Shown one piece after another: positions 1 to 9,111 of a DNA stretch of 9,362 nt. The translations under genes were made by a program, and so were the position numbers. The stretch is from IMG/VR virus record IMGVR_UViG_2541047897_000003. One strand, written 5' to 3'. Positions within the stretch are counted from its first letter, which is position 1; every line of letters starts with the position of its first letter. Under the pieces are notes generated by a model, which did no database searches, was not told where the DNA came from, and worked only from the letters and a program-made list of their open reading frames with translations. This stretch comes from a virus. Lineage: Duplodnaviria > Heunggongvirae > Uroviricota > Caudoviricetes.

Positions 1-1056
1 TTAAAACTGATAGGTCATGCCAACCGCGACAATATCATCATTATTAATATTCAATTTGTTATCGCTATCCAGTTGGTTGATTTTATAATCAACAAACGCT
101 GACATATTTTTGTTGAAATAATACGTAGCACCAACATCGACATAATTGACCAGATCTTCATCACCGATGCCCTCAATATCTTTCCCTTTCGATAAGACAT
201 AACCCAGCGATGGACGCAGACCAAAGTCAAACTGGTATTGAGCGACCGCTTCAAAGTTCTGCGTCTTATTGGCAAAGCCGCCAGAGATTGGCATCATTTT
301 ACGTGTTTCAGAATAGAAAGTTGCCAGATAAATATTATTGGCATCGTATTTCAGACCTGTTGCCCATGCTTCTGCACGCTTGCCTGTGCCACGGCTTTGC
401 AGGTTCTGCTCGTTGGTACGATCAGAGTTGGTATAGGCTCCACTGATGGCGAAATCGCTGCCACCAAAGTCATATGTCAATGACGTGCCGAAGCCATCGC
501 CGTTTTGCTTTTTAACGTCGCGGTTTTCGTTTTTCCCTTGATATTGCAGGGTTAAGTTCAGGCCATCGATAACGCCGAAGAAGTCGGTGTTCCGATACGT
601 CGCCAGACCGCTGGCGCGTTTGGTCATAAAGTTGTCGGTCTGCGCCGAGGAGTCGCCACCAAATTCCGGGAACATATCGGTCCAGGCTTCCACGTCATAC
701 AACGCGCCCAGGTTACGACCATAATCGAAAGAACCCAAATCTTTATATTTCAACCCGGCAAAAGCGAGACGCGTTTTTTGCTGTGCAGTATCACTCTCCG
801 CTTTATTACCGGCAAACTCAGCTTCCCAACGACCATAACCAGTCAGTTGATCGTTAATTTGTGTTTCGCCTTTAAAACCAAAACGGATATAACTCTGGTC
901 GCCATCTTTACTGTCATTATCACTCATATAATGCATGGCTTTAACTTTGCCATAGACATCCAGTTTATTACCGTCTTTGTTATATATTTCTGCGGCCTGT
1001 ACGGATACAGATGCCACAATGCCCATCACCACTAATGCCAGAGTGCTCTTTTTCAT
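1..1056 (-). CDS. phoE: Outer-membrane phosphoporin PhoE (phosphate-starvation-inducible anion porin), complete
   Basis: ORF track 1..1062 (-) translates to [18 protein letters not shown]...[18 protein letters not shown]... ending ...VGMTYQF (signal peptide, C-terminal Phe typical of general porins). Recognised from memory as E. coli PhoE. The second ATG (1056-1054) is preceded by AGGA at ~6 nt and gives the known MKKSTL N-terminus; stop codon at 1-3. Confidence 0.9.
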
Positions 1057-1128
1057 TTTCATTCCTGATTTTAATTAACGCGCGAATATTCAGCGGGAGA
1101 GTCCCGTTGAAAACAGGAAAGTTTTTAA

Positions 1129-2233: not shown

Positions 2234-2452
2234 ATGGCGATAAAGAAAAGTAAATGTGAAGACAAAAGCAGATACGACATTGTTGCTGATCTGCGCAAAA
2301 GAGGAAAAAGCCTAGCAGCTCTTGGTCGTGAGAACGGTCTCTCTATCTCTACGGTAAAAAATGCCTTGGATAAACCTTACCCTCGGGGTGAAAGAATTAT
2401 TGCCGATGCATTGGGAGTTGAGCCACGAGACCTCTGGCCTTCGAGGTATTGA
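2234..2452 (+). CDS. ner: Ner-like DNA-binding protein (negative regulator of early and repressor transcription; Ner/Nlp family)
   Basis: ORF track 2225..2452 starts at TTG. The likely start is the ATG at 2234, with GAGG at 2219-2222. The product (MAIKKSK...[58 protein letters not shown]) has the Ner/Nlp HTH signature and C-terminal WPSRY. Its stop overlaps the transposase start region. Confidence 0.8.
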
Positions 2453-2454
2453 AA

Positions 2455-4455
2455 ATGCAACCACAATGTAATGATTGGTTTTCTGCAAAGAAATTAGAAG
2501 GGCTGATAGGTCTTCCAAAATCCTCTAGCGCGATCTCTCGTAAAGCAAGGTTAGAACAGTGGGTGTTTCGACAGATACACGGGGTAAGAGGAGTAGCCTA
2601 TGAGTTTCATATCTCATCTTTACCAAAGGAAACGCAAGCTGCGTTATTGCTTAGACAAGGAGAGATTGAAACAAGCATGGGCCGTTTTGAAATCGCCCGC
2701 CCCACGCTGGAAGCCCACGATTATGATCGCGAGGCGCTGTGGAGCAAATGGGATAACGCCAGCGATTCCCAGCGCAGACTTGCTGAAAAATGGTTGCCTG
2801 CGGTTCAGGCCGCAGACGAAATGCTGAACCAGGGGATTTCAACAAAAACGGCTTTTGCGACCGTTGCAGGACATTACCAGGTCAGCGCATCCACTTTGCG
2901 TGACAAGTATTACCAGGTACAGAAGTTTGCGAAGCCTGACTGGGCGGCTGCTCTTGTTGATGGACGTGGTGCATCCCGTCGCAATGTTCACAAAAGTGAA
3001 TTTGACGAGGATGCCTGGCAGTTTCTGATTGCAGATTATCTGCGACCGGAAAAACCCGCCTTCCGCAAATGTTATGAGCGTCTGGAACTGGCAGCCCGCG
3101 AGCATGGCTGGAGTATTCCCTCCCGTGCCACGGCCTTTCGCCGGATTCAGCAACTGAACGAGGCAATGGTTGTTGCCTGCCGTGAAGGTGAACATGCACT
3201 GATGCATCTGATACCGGCACAACAACGAACTGTGGAACACCTGGACGCCATGCAGTGGATCAACGGCGACGGTTATCTGCATAACGTCTTTGTACGCTGG
3301 TTTAACGGTGATGTGATCCGCCCGAAAACATGGTTCTGGCAGGATGTGAAAACCCGAAAAATTCTGGGCTGGCGCTGCGATGTGAGCGAGAACATTGATT
3401 CAATTCGCCTCTCGTTCATGGATGTTGTGACTCGCTACGGTATCCCGGAGGATTTTCACATCACCATTGATAACACCCGTGGTGCTGCGAATAAATGGCT
3501 GACGGGAGGCGCGCCCAATCGCTACCGCTTTAAGGTAAAAGAGGACGATCCAAAAGGACTGTTTTTACTGATGGGGGCGAAAATGCACTGGACAAGCGTT
3601 GTTGCCGGTAAAGGCTGGGGCCAGGCAAAACCTGTTGAACGTGCTTTCGGTGTTGGTGGGCTTGAGGAATACGTTGATAAGCATCCGGCACTGGCTGGCG
3701 CATATACGGGGCCTAATCCGCAGGCAAAACCTGATAACTATGGCGACCGCGCTGTTGATGCAGAGCTGTTTCTGAAAACCCTTGCCGAAGGTGTGGCGAT
3801 GTTCAATGCCAGAACAGGCCGTGAAACAGAAATGTGCGGAGGCAAACTTTCGTTTGATGACGTTTTTGAGCGTGAATACGCCAGAACGATTGTGCGTAAG
3901 CCTACCGAAGAGCAAAAACGGATGCTGTTACTGCCTGCCGAGGCGGTGAACGTTTCACGTAAAGGCGAGTTCGCGCTTAAAGTTGGCGGCTCCCTTAAAG
4001 GTGCGAAAAACGTTTATTACAACATGGCGTTAATGAATGCCGGAGTGAAAAAAGTTGTGGTCAGATTTGATCCACAGCAGTTACACAGCACGGTTTATTG
4101 CTACACCCTGGACGGTCGGTTTATCTGTGAAGCGGAATGTCTGTCACCTGTTGCGTTTAATGATGCTGCGGCAGGCCGTGAATATCGCCGCCGCCAGAAA
4201 CAACTGAAATCTGCGACGAAAGCAGCGATTAAGGCACAGAAACAAATGGATGCACTGGAAGTGGCAGAGCTGCTGCCGCAGATAGCCGAACCTGAAGCAC
4301 CAGAATCACGAATTGTCGGCATTTTCCGGCCTTCCGGTAATATGGAACGGGTGAAGAATCAGGAGCGTGATGATGAATACGAAACTGAGCGTGATGAATA
4401 TCTGAATCATTCGCTGGATATTCTGGAACAGAACAGACGTAAAAAAGCCATTTAA
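2455..4455 (+). CDS. A: Mu-type DDE transposase A (MuA) with a D108-like N-terminal enhancer/operator-binding domain
   Basis: ORF track 2449..4455 (668 aa from TTG). The likely start is the ATG at 2455, with GAGG at 2443-2446. From about residue 65 onward ([12 protein letters not shown]...[38 protein letters not shown]...) it matches Mu transposase as I recall it. DDE catalytic contexts are visible ([31 protein letters not shown]). Confidence 0.95.
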
Positions 4456-4493: not shown

Positions 4494-5432
4494 ATGAATA
4501 TTTCCGATATTCGCGCAGGACTGCGCACGCTTGTAGAAAATGAAGAAACCACCTTTAAACAAATTGCTCTTGAGAGCGGACTTTCTACCGGAACTATCAG
4601 TAGTTTTATCAATGATAAGTACAACGGGGATAACGAGCGTATTTCACAAATTCTGCAACGCTGGCTGGAAAAATATCATGCAGTTGCAGAACTACCTGAA
4701 CCGCCCCGCTTTGTGGAAACGCAGACGGTAAAACAAATCTGGACAAGTATGCGTTTTGCCAGCCTGACTGAAAGTATTGCTGTTGTATGTGGCAATCCTG
4801 GTGTGGGCAAAACCGAAGCGGCCCGTGAATATCGCCGCACCAATAACAATGTCTGGATGATCACCATTACGCCATCCTGTGCCAGCGTTCTGGAATGTCT
4901 TACTGAACTGGCGTTTGAGCTGGGAATGAATGACGCACCACGCCGTAAAGGGCCGCTCTCCCGCGCCCTGCGACGTCGCCTTGAAGGTACACAGGGGCTG
5001 GTTATCATCGACGAAGCTGATCATCTTGGTGCCGAAGTTCTGGAAGAACTCCGCCTGTTACAGGAATCAACCCGTATTGGCCTTGTGCTGATGGGAAATC
5101 ACCGGGTTTATTCAAATATGACGGGGGGTAACAGAACGGTTGAATTTGCCCGTCTGTTTTCCCGTATTGCAAAGCGCACTGCAATTAATAAAACAAAAAA
5201 AGCCGATGTAAAAGCTATTGCGGATGCCTGGCAGATTAACGGCGAAAAAGAACTGGAGTTATTACAGCAGATTGCGCAGAAACCAGGTGCGCTTCGCATT
5301 CTGAATCATTCACTTCGCCTTGCCGCCATGACGGCTCACGGTAAAGGTGAGCGTGTTAACGAAGATTATCTGCGTCAGGCTTTCCGTGAATTAGACCTGG
5401 ACGTTGATATTTCAACGCTGCTGCGTAATTAA
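4494..5432 (+). CDS. B: Mu B protein (AAA+ ATPase, target-DNA capture and transposition activator)
   Basis: 312-aa ORF with GAGG 7 nt upstream. N-terminus MNISDIRAGLRTLVENEETTFKQIALESGLSTGTISSFIND (HTH). Walker A GNPGVGKTEA and Walker B LVIIDEADHL. Length and sequence match MuB from memory. Confidence 0.95.
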   Translation: MNISDIRAGLRTLVENEETTFKQIALESGLSTGTISSFINDKYNGDNERISQILQRWLEKYHAVAELPEPPRFVETQTVKQIWTSMRFASLTESIAVVCGNPGVGKTEAAREYRRTNNNVWMITITPSCASVLECLTELAFELGMNDAPRRKGPLSRALRRRLEGTQGLVIIDEADHLGAEVLEELRLLQESTRIGLVLMGNHRVYSNMTGGNRTVEFARLFSRIAKRTAINKTKKADVKAIADAWQINGEKELELLQQIAQKPGALRILNHSLRLAAMTAHGKGERVNEDYLRQAFRELDLDVDISTLLRN

Positions 5433-5677: not shown

Positions 5678-5908
5678 ATGTGTATTAAAGCTGAAAAATA
5701 TATTGAATGGGTTAAACACTGTCAGTGCCACGGGGTGCCGCTGACGACATATAAATGCCCCGGATGTGGTGAACAGATTATGACGCAATGCTCACCCGAA
5801 AAGGAAATTCGGGATTCCCTGACATGTTGTCCGTGGTGCAGCGCGGTTTTCTTTAAGCAGGTAAAAGGCGCGAAGGTAAAAGCCAGCGCAGTTATTCAGA
5901 ATCAATAA
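5678..5908 (+). CDS. Hypothetical small Cys-rich (putative zinc-binding) early protein
   Basis: The ATG at 5678 follows the kil stop (5673-5675) by 2 nt, with GGAG at 5667-5670; the track ORF 5654..5908 starts further upstream. The 76-aa product has 9 Cys: C15-x-C17, C27-x2-C30, C38, C50-C51-x2-C54. Confidence 0.55.
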   Translation: MCIKAEKYIEWVKHCQCHGVPLTTYKCPGCGEQIMTQCSPEKEIRDSLTCCPWCSAVFFKQVKGAKVKASAVIQNQ

Positions 5909-6948: not shown

Positions 6949-7473
6949 ATGGCTAAACCAGCAAAACGCATCAAAAGTGCCGCAGCGGCTTATGTGCCAC
7001 AAAACCGCGATGCGGTGATTACCGATATTAAACGCATCGGGGATTTACAGCGCGAAGCATCACGTCTGGAAACGGAAATGAATGATGCCATCGCGGAAAT
7101 TACGGAGAAATTTGCAGCCCGGATTGCACCGATTAAAACCGATATTGAAACCCTTTCAAAAGGCGTTCAGGGATGGTGTGAAGCGAACCGCGACGAACTG
7201 ACGAACGGCGGCAAAGTGAAGACGGCGAATCTTGTCACCGGTGATGTATCGTGGCGGGTCCGTCCACCATCAGTAAGTATTCGTGGTATGGATGCAGTGA
7301 TGGAAACGCTGGAGCGCCTTGGCCTGCAACGCTTTATTCGCACGAAGCAGGAAATCAACAAGGAGGCGATTTTACTGGAACCAAAAGCCGTCGCAGGTGT
7401 TGCCGGAATTACGGTTAAATCGGGAATTGAAGATTTTTCCATTATTCCATTTGAACAGGAAGCCGGTATTTAA
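6949..7473 (+). CDS. gam: Gam (Ku-like double-strand DNA-end-binding protein; host exonuclease inhibitor)
   Basis: 174-aa ORF with AGGAG ~10 nt upstream. Sequence MAKPAKRIKSAAAAYVPQNRDAVITDIKRIGDLQREASRLETEMNDAIAEI... matches Mu Gam from memory in length and sequence. Confidence 0.9.
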   Translation: MAKPAKRIKSAAAAYVPQNRDAVITDIKRIGDLQREASRLETEMNDAIAEITEKFAARIAPIKTDIETLSKGVQGWCEANRDELTNGGKVKTANLVTGDVSWRVRPPSVSIRGMDAVMETLERLGLQRFIRTKQEINKEAILLEPKAVAGVAGITVKSGIEDFSIIPFEQEAGI

Positions 7474-7571: not shown

Positions 7572-8102
7572 ATGGTTGATGCAAAAATTCTGAATGGTGT
7601 CAGCACATTATTACGGGCTTACGGACGCCTGACCTGCGGGGTTCTGGCTGAAAAAATGCAGATGCCATCCTCCGCGATGGTGTACTTCCTGCGTGATGCG
7701 GTTGATGCCGGAATGCTGACTGAACTTAATGGTTTTTACGACGTACCGCGTCCCCGTACAGAGCAGCCTGTAAGACGAAACACAACTGAGCAGCCTGCTG
7801 TTGATGATGCGGTGTGGTGCAACTGGCGTCGCTCATTACCCTGGGTGGAAGGTAATACTATCCCCGCGCTGGCAAAAGAGTTTGCAACAGGCGTGCTGAC
7901 CTGTGAGTCCGTTCACATCGTTGCAGAAGTGGATGACGAGATGTGCAAACAGGGAATGCCCCGTTTTGTGATGGCTTATATCGATATCCGGCTGGGGCGG
8001 TTTATTTGCAGTTCAAGCGCCTGGAATATCACCGACCATGTACTGCGTTATCTCATTCTTGATTGTTCTCCGGCTCCCGCAGCGGTGCAGGAGGTGGCGT
8101 GA
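7572..8102 (+). CDS. Hypothetical early protein (176 aa) with an N-terminal winged-helix-like segment
   Basis: GAGG 9 nt upstream of the ATG. N-terminus GVSTLLRAYGRLTCGVLAEKMQMPSSAMVYFLRDAVDAGMLTE looks like an HTH or winged helix. Stop TGA at 8100-8102 overlaps the next start. Confidence 0.6.
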   Translation: MVDAKILNGVSTLLRAYGRLTCGVLAEKMQMPSSAMVYFLRDAVDAGMLTELNGFYDVPRPRTEQPVRRNTTEQPAVDDAVWCNWRRSLPWVEGNTIPALAKEFATGVLTCESVHIVAEVDDEMCKQGMPRFVMAYIDIRLGRFICSSSAWNITDHVLRYLILDCSPAPAAVQEVA

Positions 8103-8632
8103 TGTTTTTTAAAACGTCAAATCCCGCAGCACTGCTGGCATGGGACCAGTTTATGGCGGACTGCCTGAAACTACGCGAAGAAGCCCGCCATCTTGATAAG
8201 GTTCTGGGCTGTGGTTGCCGGTCAGTATTCAGCACAGGTATTGGTGGGCGTCATTTTCATGGCGTGAATTTTCCGGGGAATGAGCGCCCCTTCTCGCGGG
8301 AGCTGTGGACCGTACAACGGCCCGCATCAGGTAACAGTTGCAGGCCCAGAACTTCGCGGATACCTGCTCATCTCAGGGAGCAGGCAAGAGAGCTGGCGAA
8401 AATATGGCAGGAGAATATTCCGGTCACTTACGCCCGCACAGATGCTCTCTTACCCGCACTGGGACTGGATTTCAGCGCAACAATATTCGGACCTCTCCAG
8501 TGGTTCCGTGTTGGTGATGTGATTTACGTCATGACGGGGATGACACCCGCACAAGGCCGCATGACTGAAATCCTTTCGGACGAATTTATCCGGGCGCAAA
8601 AACAGGCAGAGGTAAACAATGGAAAACAGTGA
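8102..8632 (+). CDS. Hypothetical early protein (176 aa)
   Basis: ATG at 8102 is preceded by a perfect AGGAGG (8089-8094) at 7 nt and overlaps the upstream stop (GTGATG). The track ORF 8063..8632 starts at an upstream TTG that lacks an RBS. Confidence 0.6.
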   Translation: MFFKTSNPAALLAWDQFMADCLKLREEARHLDKVLGCGCRSVFSTGIGGRHFHGVNFPGNERPFSRELWTVQRPASGNSCRPRTSRIPAHLREQARELAKIWQENIPVTYARTDALLPALGLDFSATIFGPLQWFRVGDVIYVMTGMTPAQGRMTEILSDEFIRAQKQAEVNNGKQ

Positions 8633-8810
8633 AACATCGTATTCGTGGCTGGGGAAATTTACCACGGTGAAACAGGAATGCCCGACCTGCGGTAATGAAT
8701 CCCCTGAATATCTGAAAGAGTGCCCTCATTGTGGCAGGCAGAAATGCAACCACTGCGATATGGGCGATGACACGGCGTGCATGAATTGTGAAGGTGAACA
8801 GAATGAATAA
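8619..8810 (+). CDS. Hypothetical small double zinc-ribbon protein (63 aa, four CxxC pairs)
   Basis: GAGG 7 nt upstream. Product contains CPTC...CPHC...CNHC...CMNC (four C-x2-C pairs) and an acidic C-terminus. Overlaps the upstream ORF by 14 nt. Confidence 0.55.
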   Translation: MENSETSYSWLGKFTTVKQECPTCGNESPEYLKECPHCGRQKCNHCDMGDDTACMNCEGEQNE

Positions 8811-9111
8811 TGGCGTATTTACAAAATCCGAGGAGCTGACAGCGTTGTTGACGGCGGCTGGTTTTCCTGAAGATGTGATCGGTAACTTTGTGGCGGCGGT
8901 ATATGCCCCGTCTTATAACCGTGCAATTGATGAGGTCATGGCGTACCGACTCGGCATTGTTGCTGAGTCACTGAGTCCTCACTGGATTATTGAAAATCTC
9001 CGCGCTATTGCTGATGGCAACGATAAATCAGCAGCCGTTGCTGCACTGGATGTGTTACGGCAAATGAGTCTGAAATTTTATCCTGAATTTATTCTGAGGA
9101 CCGCAAAATGA
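8803..9111 (+). CDS. Hypothetical early protein (~102 aa)
   Basis: ATG at 8803 overlaps the previous stop (8808-8810), with AAGGTG upstream; the track starts at GTG 8788. No recognisable motif. Confidence 0.5.
   Translation: MNNGVFTKSEELTALLTAAGFPEDVIGNFVAAVYAPSYNRAIDEVMAYRLGIVAESLSPHWIIENLRAIADGNDKSAAVAALDVLRQMSLKFYPEFILRTAK

Follow-up and report, generated by a model that had tools for sequence, protein, structure and literature searches.

The gp13 ortholog of a Mu-like prophage in Escherichia coli represents an unnamed family of acidic, eight-cysteine phage proteins

An open reading frame (ORF) in the left-end segment of a Mu-like prophage carried on an E. coli chromosome was found to encode the ortholog of bacteriophage Mu gp13 (Mup13, NP_050617; formerly E14). 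The gene occupies positions 8619 to 8810 of the plus strand of the window (i.e., the whole 9,362-nt stretch of DNA that was analyzed), from the ATG at 8619 to the TAA at 8808 to 8810, and its 63-aa translation is MENSETSYSWLGKFTTVKQECPTCGNESPEYLKECPHCGRQKCNHCDMGDDTACMNCEGEQNE. This protein is not a Mu oddity but stands for a sharply defined, unnamed family comprising hundreds of sequence clusters. The reading that we tentatively prefer, though we would put it at somewhat below even chances, is that gp13 is a two-metal, eight-cysteine scaffold that presents an invariant acidic loop and that, early in infection, attaches to a conserved host protein or blocks it.

The initial annotation had taken this ORF for a phage gene, and the identification of the window as a Mu-like prophage bears this out. 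The gene order of the window (c, ner, A, B, ..., gam, gp11, gp12, gp13) is the same as that of Mu, and the identical E. coli prophage runs on into a gp16 (GemA) family protein and then Mor; gp13 thus lies between gam and gemA/mor of a Mu-type early operon. At the protein level, the product shares 93% identity with Mu gp13 and 95 to 97% identity with the D108 and SfMu orthologs over 60 residues, and residues 1 to 60 match the 60-position profile of phrog_5584 (E-value 1.1e-43), which PHROG labels as being of unknown function. The gp13 proteins of Mu, D108, SfMu, and the Yersinia Muvirus have in common with that of the window their place in the early operon and all eight cysteines, whereas the window protein is three residues (QNE) longer than Mu gp13. 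In Mu, gp13 is a small gene of the semi-essential early operon, which is driven by the promoter Pe and in which it is cotranscribed with A, B, kil, gam, and gemA. Identical DNA was detected in five complete E. coli chromosomes, where the protein is named hypothetical protein in RefSeq (WP_019841380), and gp13 homologs were present in 35 of 5,426 E. coli genomes. The gene is already catalogued, so its presence here is not new. E14/gp13 has been part of the Mu sequence since the early 1990s and has been carried as hypothetical in annotations throughout. The semi-essential (SE) region of Mu has been described as 'semi-essential' and largely uncharacterized (PMC3820752; PMC4553209). A search of the literature on Mu gp13, Mup13, E14, the semi-essential region, and the CDMGDD motif found no paper on gp13; the 'gp13' named in a Gabija preprint is the Gam protein of JBD30 and is unrelated to Mu gp13.

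The ORF was confirmed to be a genuine protein-coding gene, as had been assumed at the outset. A Shine-Dalgarno sequence (AGAGGT, 8608 to 8613, plus strand) is positioned 6 bases 5′ of the ATG, within the 3′ end of gp12; it is conserved in Mu, SfMu, D108, and APEC, and its equivalent is annotated as a ribosome_binding_site in the Mu record AF083977. The gp13 gene is under purifying selection, with a pN/pS ratio between 0.1 and 0.35, and comparison with the Salmonella homolog gave a pS of 0.58 and a pN of 0.10. The gene was also found to overlap both neighbors, in agreement with the initial annotation: by 14 nt with the upstream gene of the Mu gp12 family (176 aa, 8102 to 8632, plus strand; PF26885 on its Salmonella homolog), and by 8 nt (ATGAATAA) with the start of the downstream gene (102 aa, phrog_1988, 8803 to 9111, plus strand) if the latter begins at the ATG at 8803 as in the RefSeq annotation. 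The GTG at 8788 in the ORF list is probably not the real start of this downstream gene. These overlaps, together with an antisense ORF of 55 aa (8586 to 8753, minus strand) and the dispensability of the region, could suggest that gp13 is functionless or decaying, or that it is conserved only through overlapping genes or the opposite strand. This explanation is effectively refuted, as (i) the overlaps are confined to the two ends, leaving the conserved core free; (ii) synonymous change far exceeds nonsynonymous change in the gp13 frame; and (iii) the family signature described below is retained at 30 to 50% identity across hundreds of unrelated genomes, with varied neighbors.

The predicted metal-binding core spans residues 21 to 57 (8679 to 8789, plus strand) and has the arrangement CPTC-x10-CPHC-x4-CNHC-x7-CMNC, with the CxxC pairs starting at residues 21, 35, 43, and 54 and separated by 10, 4, and 7 residues. 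The four CxxC pairs originally noticed within 40 residues were thus verified, and all eight cysteines fall within 37 residues. The core also includes a near-invariant lysine (K42) and the loop D47-M48-G49-D50-D51, and it is preceded by a variable N-terminal segment (residues 1 to 19, 8619 to 8675, plus strand), the first 14 nt of which are shared with gp12. When the 177 open segments of at least 30 aa in the six frames of the window were compared, gp13 was the sole segment with four CxxC motifs (the runner-up had two), and its cysteine content was 12.7% versus a six-frame background of 3.3%. Shuffling of the gp13 residues generated four or more CxxC motifs in only 601 of 200,000 trials. The pattern thus exceeds what chance would produce. 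Alignment of 75 diverse homologs revealed that all eight cysteines are invariant.

The core is followed by a short acidic tail, EGEQNE (residues 58 to 63, 8790 to 8807, plus strand), which was delineated by comparison of the stop-codon junction and by the tail statistics of the family; with 12 Asp/Glu versus 5 Lys/Arg, the window protein is acidic overall. The gp13 proteins of Mu, D108, SfMu, and others terminate directly after NCEGE, while that of the window ends in NCEGEQNE. A TAAT to CAGA change in the window lineage removed the gp13 stop codon, such that the frame enters the start of the next gene, and the extra QNE is due to this loss at the junction with the inserted downstream gene. The QNE is a lineage-specific read-through and not an ancestral tail. 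The acidic C-terminus highlighted by the initial annotation holds for the family as a whole, in which 96% of the tails are net negative and Asp or Glu make up 47% of the tail residues, but not for the QNE end as such.

The wider family is defined by the signature C-x2-C-G-x(9-35)-C-P-x-C-G-x2-K-C-x2-C-D-M-G-D-D-[VT]-x-C-x2-C-[ED] followed by an acidic tail, and its members are phage-borne proteins of roughly 45 to 70 aa. Profile searching of 1.84 billion cluster representatives returned 250 matches at an E-value ≤ 1e-3 and 192 clusters at an E-value ≤ 1e-5. Membership was counted by strict cysteine spacing, x(6-40)/4/7, to which at least 183 of the fetched proteins conform. Among these 183 members, K42 was conserved in 99%, D47 in 98%, G49 in 99.5%, D50 in 91%, and D51 in 89%; the median net charge was −8 and the median pI about 4.2, with 99% of the proteins net negative. 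The window protein fits the signature in its 10/4/7 spacing, K42, D47-M48-G49-D50-D51 loop, and EGEQNE tail. The N-terminal segment is missing or exchanged in many homologs; those of 46 to 47 aa (P0008 to P0010) were without it, and the E. coli SE11 homolog had a different N-terminus. Large proteins with multiple matching stretches, which were also returned by the profile search, proved to be tandem generic zinc ribbons and were excluded from the family because their matches were limited to profile positions 12 to 37. Scans of gp13, its neighbors, and 75 family members against Pfam, NCBIfam, and PADLOC revealed no dedicated family, and no solved structure was found for the family. The PADLOC scan gave no match to a known defence or anti-defence system, a result that is little informative because the PADLOC models cover defence and not anti-defence.

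In a few members a gp13-like domain is fused to another domain, always at the C-terminal end. The partners were a Phage_ProQ_C-like domain in five proteins (with a match just below the cutoff, 26.6 versus 27 bits, and PF24203 on record for P0219) and a domain resembling a MarR-like winged helix-turn-helix (wHTH) in six proteins, although an E-value of 0.19 makes the wHTH reading of this N-terminal domain only suggestive. Such fusions to ProQ-C/Tudor-like or wHTH-looking domains lend some weight to the idea that gp13 itself binds nucleic acid as a zinc-finger regulator of transcription or translation, in the manner of Mu Com or the late activators P2 Ogr/P4 Delta, as do its nature as a small phage zinc-finger protein encoded in a regulatory early operon and the resemblance of its first two CxxC pairs to the zinc-ribbon knuckles common in nucleic-acid-binding proteins. 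We consider this idea quite improbable. The domain is strongly acidic and K42 is its sole conserved basic residue, no meaningful similarity to Com was detected, and in the fusions it is the separate domain that would supply the nucleic-acid binding. Given the strongly anionic character of the family, nucleic-acid binding by the module itself is unlikely. The fusions would fit equally well if the domain acted in a complex bound to nucleic acid, e.g., as the dimerization or recruitment module of a regulator.

The eight invariant cysteines in four CxxC pairs fit two tetra-cysteine metal sites, as far as the alignment can indicate. An AlphaFold2 (AF2) model of gp13 had a mean pLDDT of 74, with a core of about 87 and block means of 54 and 58 for residues 1 to 10 and 11 to 20, respectively; an earlier run with 12 close homologs was poor (pLDDT 57). 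The modeled core has one hairpin (residues 32 to 34 and 41 to 43) and a short helix (residues 55 to 59). Foldseek identified no significant structural neighbor of this model, so the fold offers no functional lead; PHD, RING, FYVE, and GATA domains were at the top of the nonsignificant list. Searching the PDB by sequence profile retrieved generic CxxC matches only, the best of which was to the RPA12 zinc ribbon (E-value 1.9e-4) and covered the first two knuckles only. The conserved Asp/Gly loop, rather than being an epitope, may simply cap the metal knuckles as a structural element, or it may provide a third metal site. The knuckles themselves are of a type (CPxCG) typical of rubredoxins, and weak matches were obtained to the rubredoxin-type domain of LapB (E-value 0.005) and to rubredoxin-like domains of rubrerythrin, with rubrerythrin-like NCBIfam models matching 3 of the 75 members. 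A function as a rubredoxin-like iron/redox or metal-buffering protein, with a role for the cysteines beyond that of structural zinc ligands, is nonetheless highly improbable: the scores are all below the curated cutoffs and reflect generic knuckles only, no redox partner genes recur nearby, and the invariant acidic loop and tail are foreign to rubredoxins.

The initial annotation had taken the overlaps to mean that gp13 functions with its neighbors. The comparison of genomic contexts does not support this claim. The gene immediately 5′ of gp13 is gp12 in Mu, D108, and the window, a frameshifted gp12 in SfMu, gp11 in the Yersinia phage YpM_3, and an unrelated small ORF in both E. coli SE11 and a Salmonella prophage. 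In the Salmonella prophage, two other genes separate gp12 from the gp13 homolog, and some Muvirus genomes have an intact gp13 with gp12 missing or frameshifted. The downstream phrog_1988 gene is present in SfMu, YpM_3, and SE11 but not in Mu or D108. At ten loci outside the enterobacterial Mu-like prophages, the window neighbors were all absent over a distance of about 7 kb, and recurrence of any other neighbor family was not seen within 3 kb of the gp13 homolog. The proposed cooperation is thus unsupported because the contexts differ and gp12 is lost or frameshifted where gp13 is intact; gp12 is no conserved partner of gp13. Two candidate gp12-gp13 fusion links were also rejected: phrog_6418 (231 positions) has a gp13-like C-terminus, yet the window gp12 matches only phrog_2314, not phrog_6418, and the 316-aa fusion protein P0044 does not resemble gp12. 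The short overlaps are normal packing of the Mu early operon.

Beyond the Mu-like prophages of E. coli, Salmonella, and Accumulibacter, homologs were located in (i) linear phage-plasmids of Klebsiella (N15/phiKO2-like), downstream of genes for an antiterminator and a 3′-5′ exonuclease; (ii) Klebsiella phage Kpn BU9, adjoining genes for an exonuclease, a gp2.5-like SSB, and a DNA polymerase; (iii) a phage contig, flanked by a PurZ-like gene and a dATP/dGTP pyrophosphohydrolase gene; and (iv) a plasmid/ICE-like element with kleA-like, HipA, and polyvalent-protein LPD1 genes. Some homologs lie in arrays of codirectional small ORFs. From this distribution, which spans Mu-like, N15/phiKO2-like, and lytic-type phages, we infer that gp13 is an accessory, noncore gene and a single-gene cassette that moves between unrelated phage types. 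The non-Mu homologs lie within replication, recombination, or nucleotide modules (Kpn BU9, the PurZ contig, and the phiKO2-like elements), and Mu gp13 shares its operon with Gam and the transposition proteins A (transposase) and B. These locations speak for an alternative in which gp13 is not a host inhibitor but serves the DNA transactions of the phage itself (replication, recombination, or nucleotide metabolism), as a component or an adaptor. It could, for instance, be a zinc-knot cofactor by which replication and recombination proteins of the phage or the host are bridged or regulated. This alternative deserves consideration but is unlikely. No neighbor family is common to the contexts, so a dedicated partner encoded by the phage would need to be a different one each time, and the transposing, protelomerase-type, and polymerase-encoding phages that carry the gene replicate by unrelated mechanisms.

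In the host-directed model that we prefer, the eight invariant cysteines would bind two metal ions, to judge from the sequence most likely Zn2+, and thereby hold some 40 residues together as a rigid knot from which the invariant acidic loop Asp-Met-Gly-Asp-Asp and the acidic C-terminus are exposed. Acting alone and early after infection or induction, gp13 would serve as a protein-binding decoy, inhibitor, or adaptor on a basic, probably nucleic-acid-binding, surface of a widely conserved bacterial protein (e.g., a DNA-transaction or defence enzyme), by analogy with other small acidic phage inhibitors. The earlier suggestion that gp13 is a protein-protein inhibitor or regulator is plausible. 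A bolder version, which we regard as decidedly unlikely, is that gp13 is the founding member, and one amenable to experiment, of an unrecognized two-zinc finger fold, possibly a miniature cross-brace or RING-like knot, that works as a stand-alone early neutralizer of a conserved host protein (possibly a defence nuclease or an enzyme of DNA repair or DNA topology) in many phages and perhaps in conjugative elements. On that version Mu gp13 could account for arm or cim, which have been defined genetically as functions of the semi-essential region and for which no gene assignment was found. Should gp13 prove to inhibit a defence or DNA-transaction enzyme of the host, a new scaffold for small inhibitors would be added; otherwise it is one of many conserved small zinc proteins of phages. 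As Mu is a classic genetic system, deletion and pull-down would provide an inexpensive route to the function of the whole family, which would also assign one more gene of the long-neglected semi-essential region of Mu.

When compared with known zinc proteins, gp13 was found to resemble zinc-ribbon and rubredoxin knuckles (PF13240, PF12773, and PF18073) over residues 17 to 40 only (CPTCG...CPHCG). The matches were below the gathering thresholds, at 16.5 bits versus a cutoff of 25 for Zn_Ribbon_1 (PF13240) and 16.1 bits versus 27.3 for DZR (PF12773), and Zn_Ribbon_1 was matched by 11 of the 75 family members. The second half of the protein, KCxxCDMGDDVxCxxC, and the acidic tail were not covered by any model. 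The term 'double zinc ribbon' used in the initial annotation is only partly supported, by the sub-threshold resemblance of residues 17 to 40, and does not extend to the second half. In cross-brace fingers with eight cysteines (RING, PHD, FYVE, B-box, and Prok-RING_2), pairs 2 and 3 are typically close together and the first loop varies in length, and the cysteine spacing of the family is similar in both respects. The gp13 spacing of 2-10-2-4-2-7-2 fits the cross-brace consensus in its first three intervals, but its last loop is short, and such spacing is not decisive for ligand topology (sequential or cross-brace). The EEA1 FYVE and MID1 B-box domains were among the weak PDB sequence matches; a significant similarity of gp13 in sequence or fold to a RING, PHD, or FYVE cross-brace finger was not detected.

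Other small CxxC proteins were likewise distinct from gp13. Mu itself encodes Com, a 62-aa translational activator of mom that is a small CxxC zinc protein like gp13; however, Com has one Cys4 site and binds RNA, and kinship was rejected on the basis of a pairwise BLASTP E-value of 0.012 with the cysteines out of register. The Lar restriction-alleviation proteins (TIGR03655/PF14354) are also small CxxC zinc proteins of phages and prophages, but gp13 does not qualify as a member (14.2 bits versus a cutoff of 39.6, E-value 0.04), and PF14354 was matched by 1 of the 75 family members (E-value 0.0043). The DnaJ cysteine-rich domain was similarly dismissed, as none of the gp13 repeats (CPTCGNES, CPHCGRQK, CNHCDMGD, and CMNCEGEQ) is a full CxxCxGxG; PF00684 (DnaJ) weakly matched 2 of the 75 members. 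The window encodes one further small CxxC protein, the gp6 homolog, which showed no similarity to gp13. With regard to mechanism, E. coli YacG is a zinc-finger gyrase inhibitor in which a Cys4 zinc site is followed by an acidic C-terminal segment, and Gp2 and Gp5.9 of T7 are small acidic phage inhibitors. No sequence relationship of gp13 to these three proteins was found, with the NCBIfam model of YacG matching 1 of the 75 members (E-value 0.0066). Their likeness to gp13 in size (about 50 to 65 aa) and acidic character is an analogy of mechanism only, and as such YacG, Gp2, and Gp5.9 illustrate how a gp13-like module could plug a basic DNA-binding surface.

The ORF at 8619-8810 (+) was confirmed from the window sequence to encode a 63-aa protein with four CxxC pairs, beginning at residues 21, 35, 43, and 54, and an NCEGEQNE end, as the initial annotation had described. 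Among 177 open six-frame segments of the window, this ORF was the only one with four CxxC pairs, and shuffling of its own residues reproduced at least four in 0.3% of trials; the Cys pattern is not due to chance. An AGAGGT sequence lies six bases 5′ of the ATG, and the equivalent site in Mu is annotated as an RBS. The protein shares 93% identity with Mu Mup13/gp13 (‘previously called E14’) and 95-97% with its counterparts in D108, SfMu, and Yersinia Muvirus phages, and phrog_5584 (unknown function) matched it end to end (E 1e-43). Its identity as Mu gp13/E14, a member of the phrog_5584 family, is thus near-certain; the gene is already catalogued and is annotated as a hypothetical protein in every record. 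When nine genomes were compared codon by codon over the 41-codon core, pN/pS was ~0.1-0.35 (e.g., pS 0.58 and pN 0.10 against a Salmonella prophage copy), which indicates a translated gene under purifying selection, and the substitution pattern supports the + frame. A 55-aa antisense ORF at 8586-8753 (minus) overlaps gp13 and is similar to a ‘putative E-82’ in an old Mu record.

The two ends of the frame were compared among Mu-like relatives. Overlaps with both neighbors, as initially noted, were observed: 14 nt with gp12, and 8 nt with the downstream gene provided that the latter starts at ATG 8803 (RefSeq annotation). The stop codon directly follows NCEGE in Mu, D108, SfMu, and an APEC prophage. 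In the window, Yersinia phage vB_YpM_3, and E. coli SE11, four junction bases are changed from TAAT to CAGA; this change removes the stop, such that the frame reads on for three codons, into the beginning of the gene that follows, and the ‘QNE’ end of gp13 is therefore a recent by-product. The downstream gene (8803-9111, +; 102 aa; phrog_1988, unknown function) is an extra gene positioned between gp13 and a gp14-like gene; it is present in the window, SfMu, vB_YpM_3, and SE11 and absent in Mu and D108, where gp13 is followed by gp14. The 3-residue extension occurs where the start of this gene overlaps the gp13 stop, with SfMu and the APEC prophage keeping the EGE end.

The prophage setting of gp13 was resolved from the window. 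The gene at 1-1062 (minus) was recognized by eye from its translation and is presumably a PhoE-type porin gene. A Mu-type left end was found at 1181, where TGTATTGATTCACTTGAAG... aligns with base 1 of the Mu genome; the host-prophage junction is at 1180/1181, with intergenic DNA between the porin gene and the left end. This placement indicates prophage insertion immediately 5′ of the porin gene. When the gene calls were compared with Mu, the prophage genes were found in Mu order: the repressor (1519-2037, minus), ner (2225-2452), transposase A (2449-4455), B (4494-5432), a run of small early genes between B and gam, gam (6949-7473; Pfam Phage_Mu_Gam, E 4e-42), gp11 (7572-8102; Pfam Gp11_C, E 2e-40), gp12 (8102-8632), and gp13. 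Thus, the ORF was rightly called a phage gene, being the Mu gp13 ortholog in a Mu-type prophage. The immunity region (1519-2750: repressor, ner, and the 5′ end of the transposase gene) differs from that of Mu. Only 34% of 1100-2750 aligns to Mu, while the same stretch matches Escherichia phage PhiR68_1 at 99.8% identity; by this sequence comparison, a different immunity type is joined to an otherwise Mu-like early operon. The operon also encodes a second small Cys-motif protein, the Mu gp6 homolog (5678-5908, +; ~76 aa; CPGC...CPWC), which matches phrog_3786 (unknown function). Five complete E. coli chromosomes carry the 311 bases around gp13 at 100% identity, and, when 5,426 complete E. coli genomes were covered, 35 contained homologous DNA, chromosomal every time.

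We also examined the genomic contexts of gp13 and its homologs. Upstream of gp13 are: (i) gp12 in Mu, D108, and the window; (ii) a gp12 remnant in SfMu (L003, 1602-2131), unannotated and broken by a frameshift after ~20 codons, with gp13 intact; (iii) a gp11 homolog without gp12 in vB_YpM_3 (L014, 1963-2692), again with gp13 intact; (iv) unrelated small ORFs in SE11 and a 52-kb E. coli record; and (v) a 110-aa ORF in a Salmonella Mu-like prophage, where this and a 183-aa ORF stand between gp12 and the gp13 homolog. Farther afield, an Accumulibacter Mu-like prophage has a 139-aa form after GemA, where its early operon ends; a homolog whose core is 80% identical to that of the window lies downstream of an antiterminator and a 3′-5′ exonuclease in Klebsiella phiKO2-like linear phage-plasmids; and in Klebsiella phage Kpn BU9 (60 kb) the homolog adjoins exonuclease, SSB, and DNA polymerase genes. 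On one phage contig (L008, 5851-7707), the homolog sits between genes for a PurZ-like adenylosuccinate synthetase and a dATP/dGTP pyrophosphohydrolase. This locus also adjoins a family-A DNA polymerase, a combination of genes that phages with 2-aminoadenine (Z) genomes typically carry. At several loci the homolog is part of long arrays of co-directional small unannotated ORFs, while at another (L021, 1-14204) it accompanies kleA/kleC-like, HU, HipA/HipB, DUF87/TrwB-like ATPase, and LPD1 polyvalent-protein genes. The latter element looks plasmid- or ICE-like, and the family may extend beyond phages to such elements. In the phiKO2-like linear phage-plasmids (K. oxytoca linear plasmid CP026270; 4971-5129), PLSDB/RGI labels the homolog ‘chrB, non-erm 23S rRNA methyltransferase (G748), identity 100%’; a 52-residue mini-protein of this type cannot be that methyltransferase, so the label looks like a false resistance-gene call. 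At ten loci outside enterobacterial Mu-like prophages, none of the window neighbors was found within ~7 kb of the gene, and when ORFs within 3 kb were compared all against all, no other family was seen to travel with the homologs. The replication-module contexts would suit a role of gp13 as a cofactor for the DNA-transaction machinery of phage or host, a reading that we consider unlikely, as no partner gene is common to the contexts. Likewise, the proposal that gp13 functions with its neighbors did not hold, as these vary without a shared family and the overlaps are ordinary operon packing. Instead, gp13 behaves as an autonomous single-gene cassette.

A single-sequence word-indexed search with gp13 returned only 13 clusters; a profile built from these recovered 250 proteins (E ≤ 1e-3) from 1.84 billion cluster representatives, and a second profile search yielded 192 clusters (E ≤ 1e-5). 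The strict pattern C-x2-C-x(6-40)-C-x2-C-x4-C-x2-C-x7-C-x2-C was kept by 183 of the 247 proteins fetched, all ≤200 aa (median 63 aa), and these are here termed the Cys8 family. Larger many-stretch matches were rejected as tandem generic zinc ribbons matched by the first two knuckles only. Across the 183 members, the inner gaps of 4 and 7 residues were essentially invariant, P followed the third Cys in 92%, K preceded the fifth Cys in 99%, and the loop after the sixth Cys was conserved as D (98%), M (89%), G (99.5%), D (91%), and D (89%), then V/T. These statistics, together with the pN/pS values, effectively exclude the alternative that gp13 is a functionless ORF. Net negative charge was found in 99% of the family (median charge -8, pI 4.2), and this charge speaks against gp13 being a Com/Ogr-like nucleic-acid-binding regulator, which we regard as distinctly improbable. 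The C-terminal tail was net-acidic in 96% of members, with D/E accounting for 47% of tail residues, although Mu-group members have only a short one. The acidic tail initially ascribed to gp13 is therefore a true family trait, except for its QNE part, which is recent read-through. No Pfam or NCBIfam model reached cutoff on gp13 or on 75 diverse members, precomputed Pfam fields were empty for almost all members, and the motif string was not found in the searchable literature.

Of the 183 members, 28 exceed 100 aa. Among the fusion proteins that we inspected, the Cys8 module is almost always C-terminal, and two partners recur. Five proteins (P0037, P0058, P0095, P0109, and P0219) carry a domain that matches Pfam Phage_ProQ_C_like (26.6 bits against a cutoff of 27 for P0037; PF24203 on record for P0219), and six (P0082, P0084, P0171, P0177, P0189, and P0205) carry a ~100-aa domain whose top PDB hits, which are below significance, are MarR-type winged helices. 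In addition, phrog_6418 (231 positions) ends in a gp13-like segment. These recurrent C-terminal fusions suggest that Cys8 is a portable module, with an effector or interaction role, that can be joined to domains that bind nucleic acids.

An AlphaFold2 model of gp13, built on a 75-sequence alignment, had a mean pLDDT of 74 (~87 for residues 21-50), with low confidence for the N-terminal 19 residues and the tail. It predicts a β-hairpin (32-34/41-43) with the CPHC knuckle at the turn and a short helix (55-59) that begins at the last CxxC. Foldseek searches of the PDB and BFVD with this model returned nothing significant; the top of the non-significant list was mostly PHD, RING, FYVE, and GATA fingers. 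Residues 17-40 resemble the CPxCG knuckle pair of zinc ribbons or rubredoxins at a score below threshold, and the overall Cys spacing fits a cross-brace finger too. We infer two tetra-Cys metal sites, paired either 1+2/3+4 or 1+3/2+4. That gp13 is a rubredoxin-like iron or redox protein, as the knuckle pair might recall, is highly improbable.

The Mu region holding gp13 has been described as semi-essential and largely uncharacterized (PMC3820752; PMC4553209). Overall, gp13 is a real early-operon gene whose eight Cys and one acidic loop are invariant, whose product is strongly anionic, and which moves autonomously between unrelated mobile elements. Two structural Zn ions may knot the 40-residue core, which would present the D-M-G-D-D loop and acidic tail; early in infection, this module could then dock on a conserved bacterial protein at a basic surface and act as a decoy, inhibitor, or adaptor. 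We give this class of mechanism somewhat less than an even chance. As a by-product, the analysis delineates a sharply conserved, unnamed, and widespread family (K-C-x2-C-D-M-G-D-D), to which Mu offers a convenient experimental entry point.

When gp13 was compared with known families, its scores against the zinc-ribbon, DZR, Prok-RING_2, Lar, DnaJ-CR, and YacG models all fell below the curated thresholds. Thus, of the double zinc ribbon first proposed, knuckle-like residues and plausible metal binding stand, but assignment to the zinc-ribbon or DZR families is not supported. Sequence comparison revealed no real similarity of gp13 to Mu Com or to the gp6 homolog of the window. YacG and the small acidic inhibitors of T7, though not relatives of gp13, provide analogies for its possible action.
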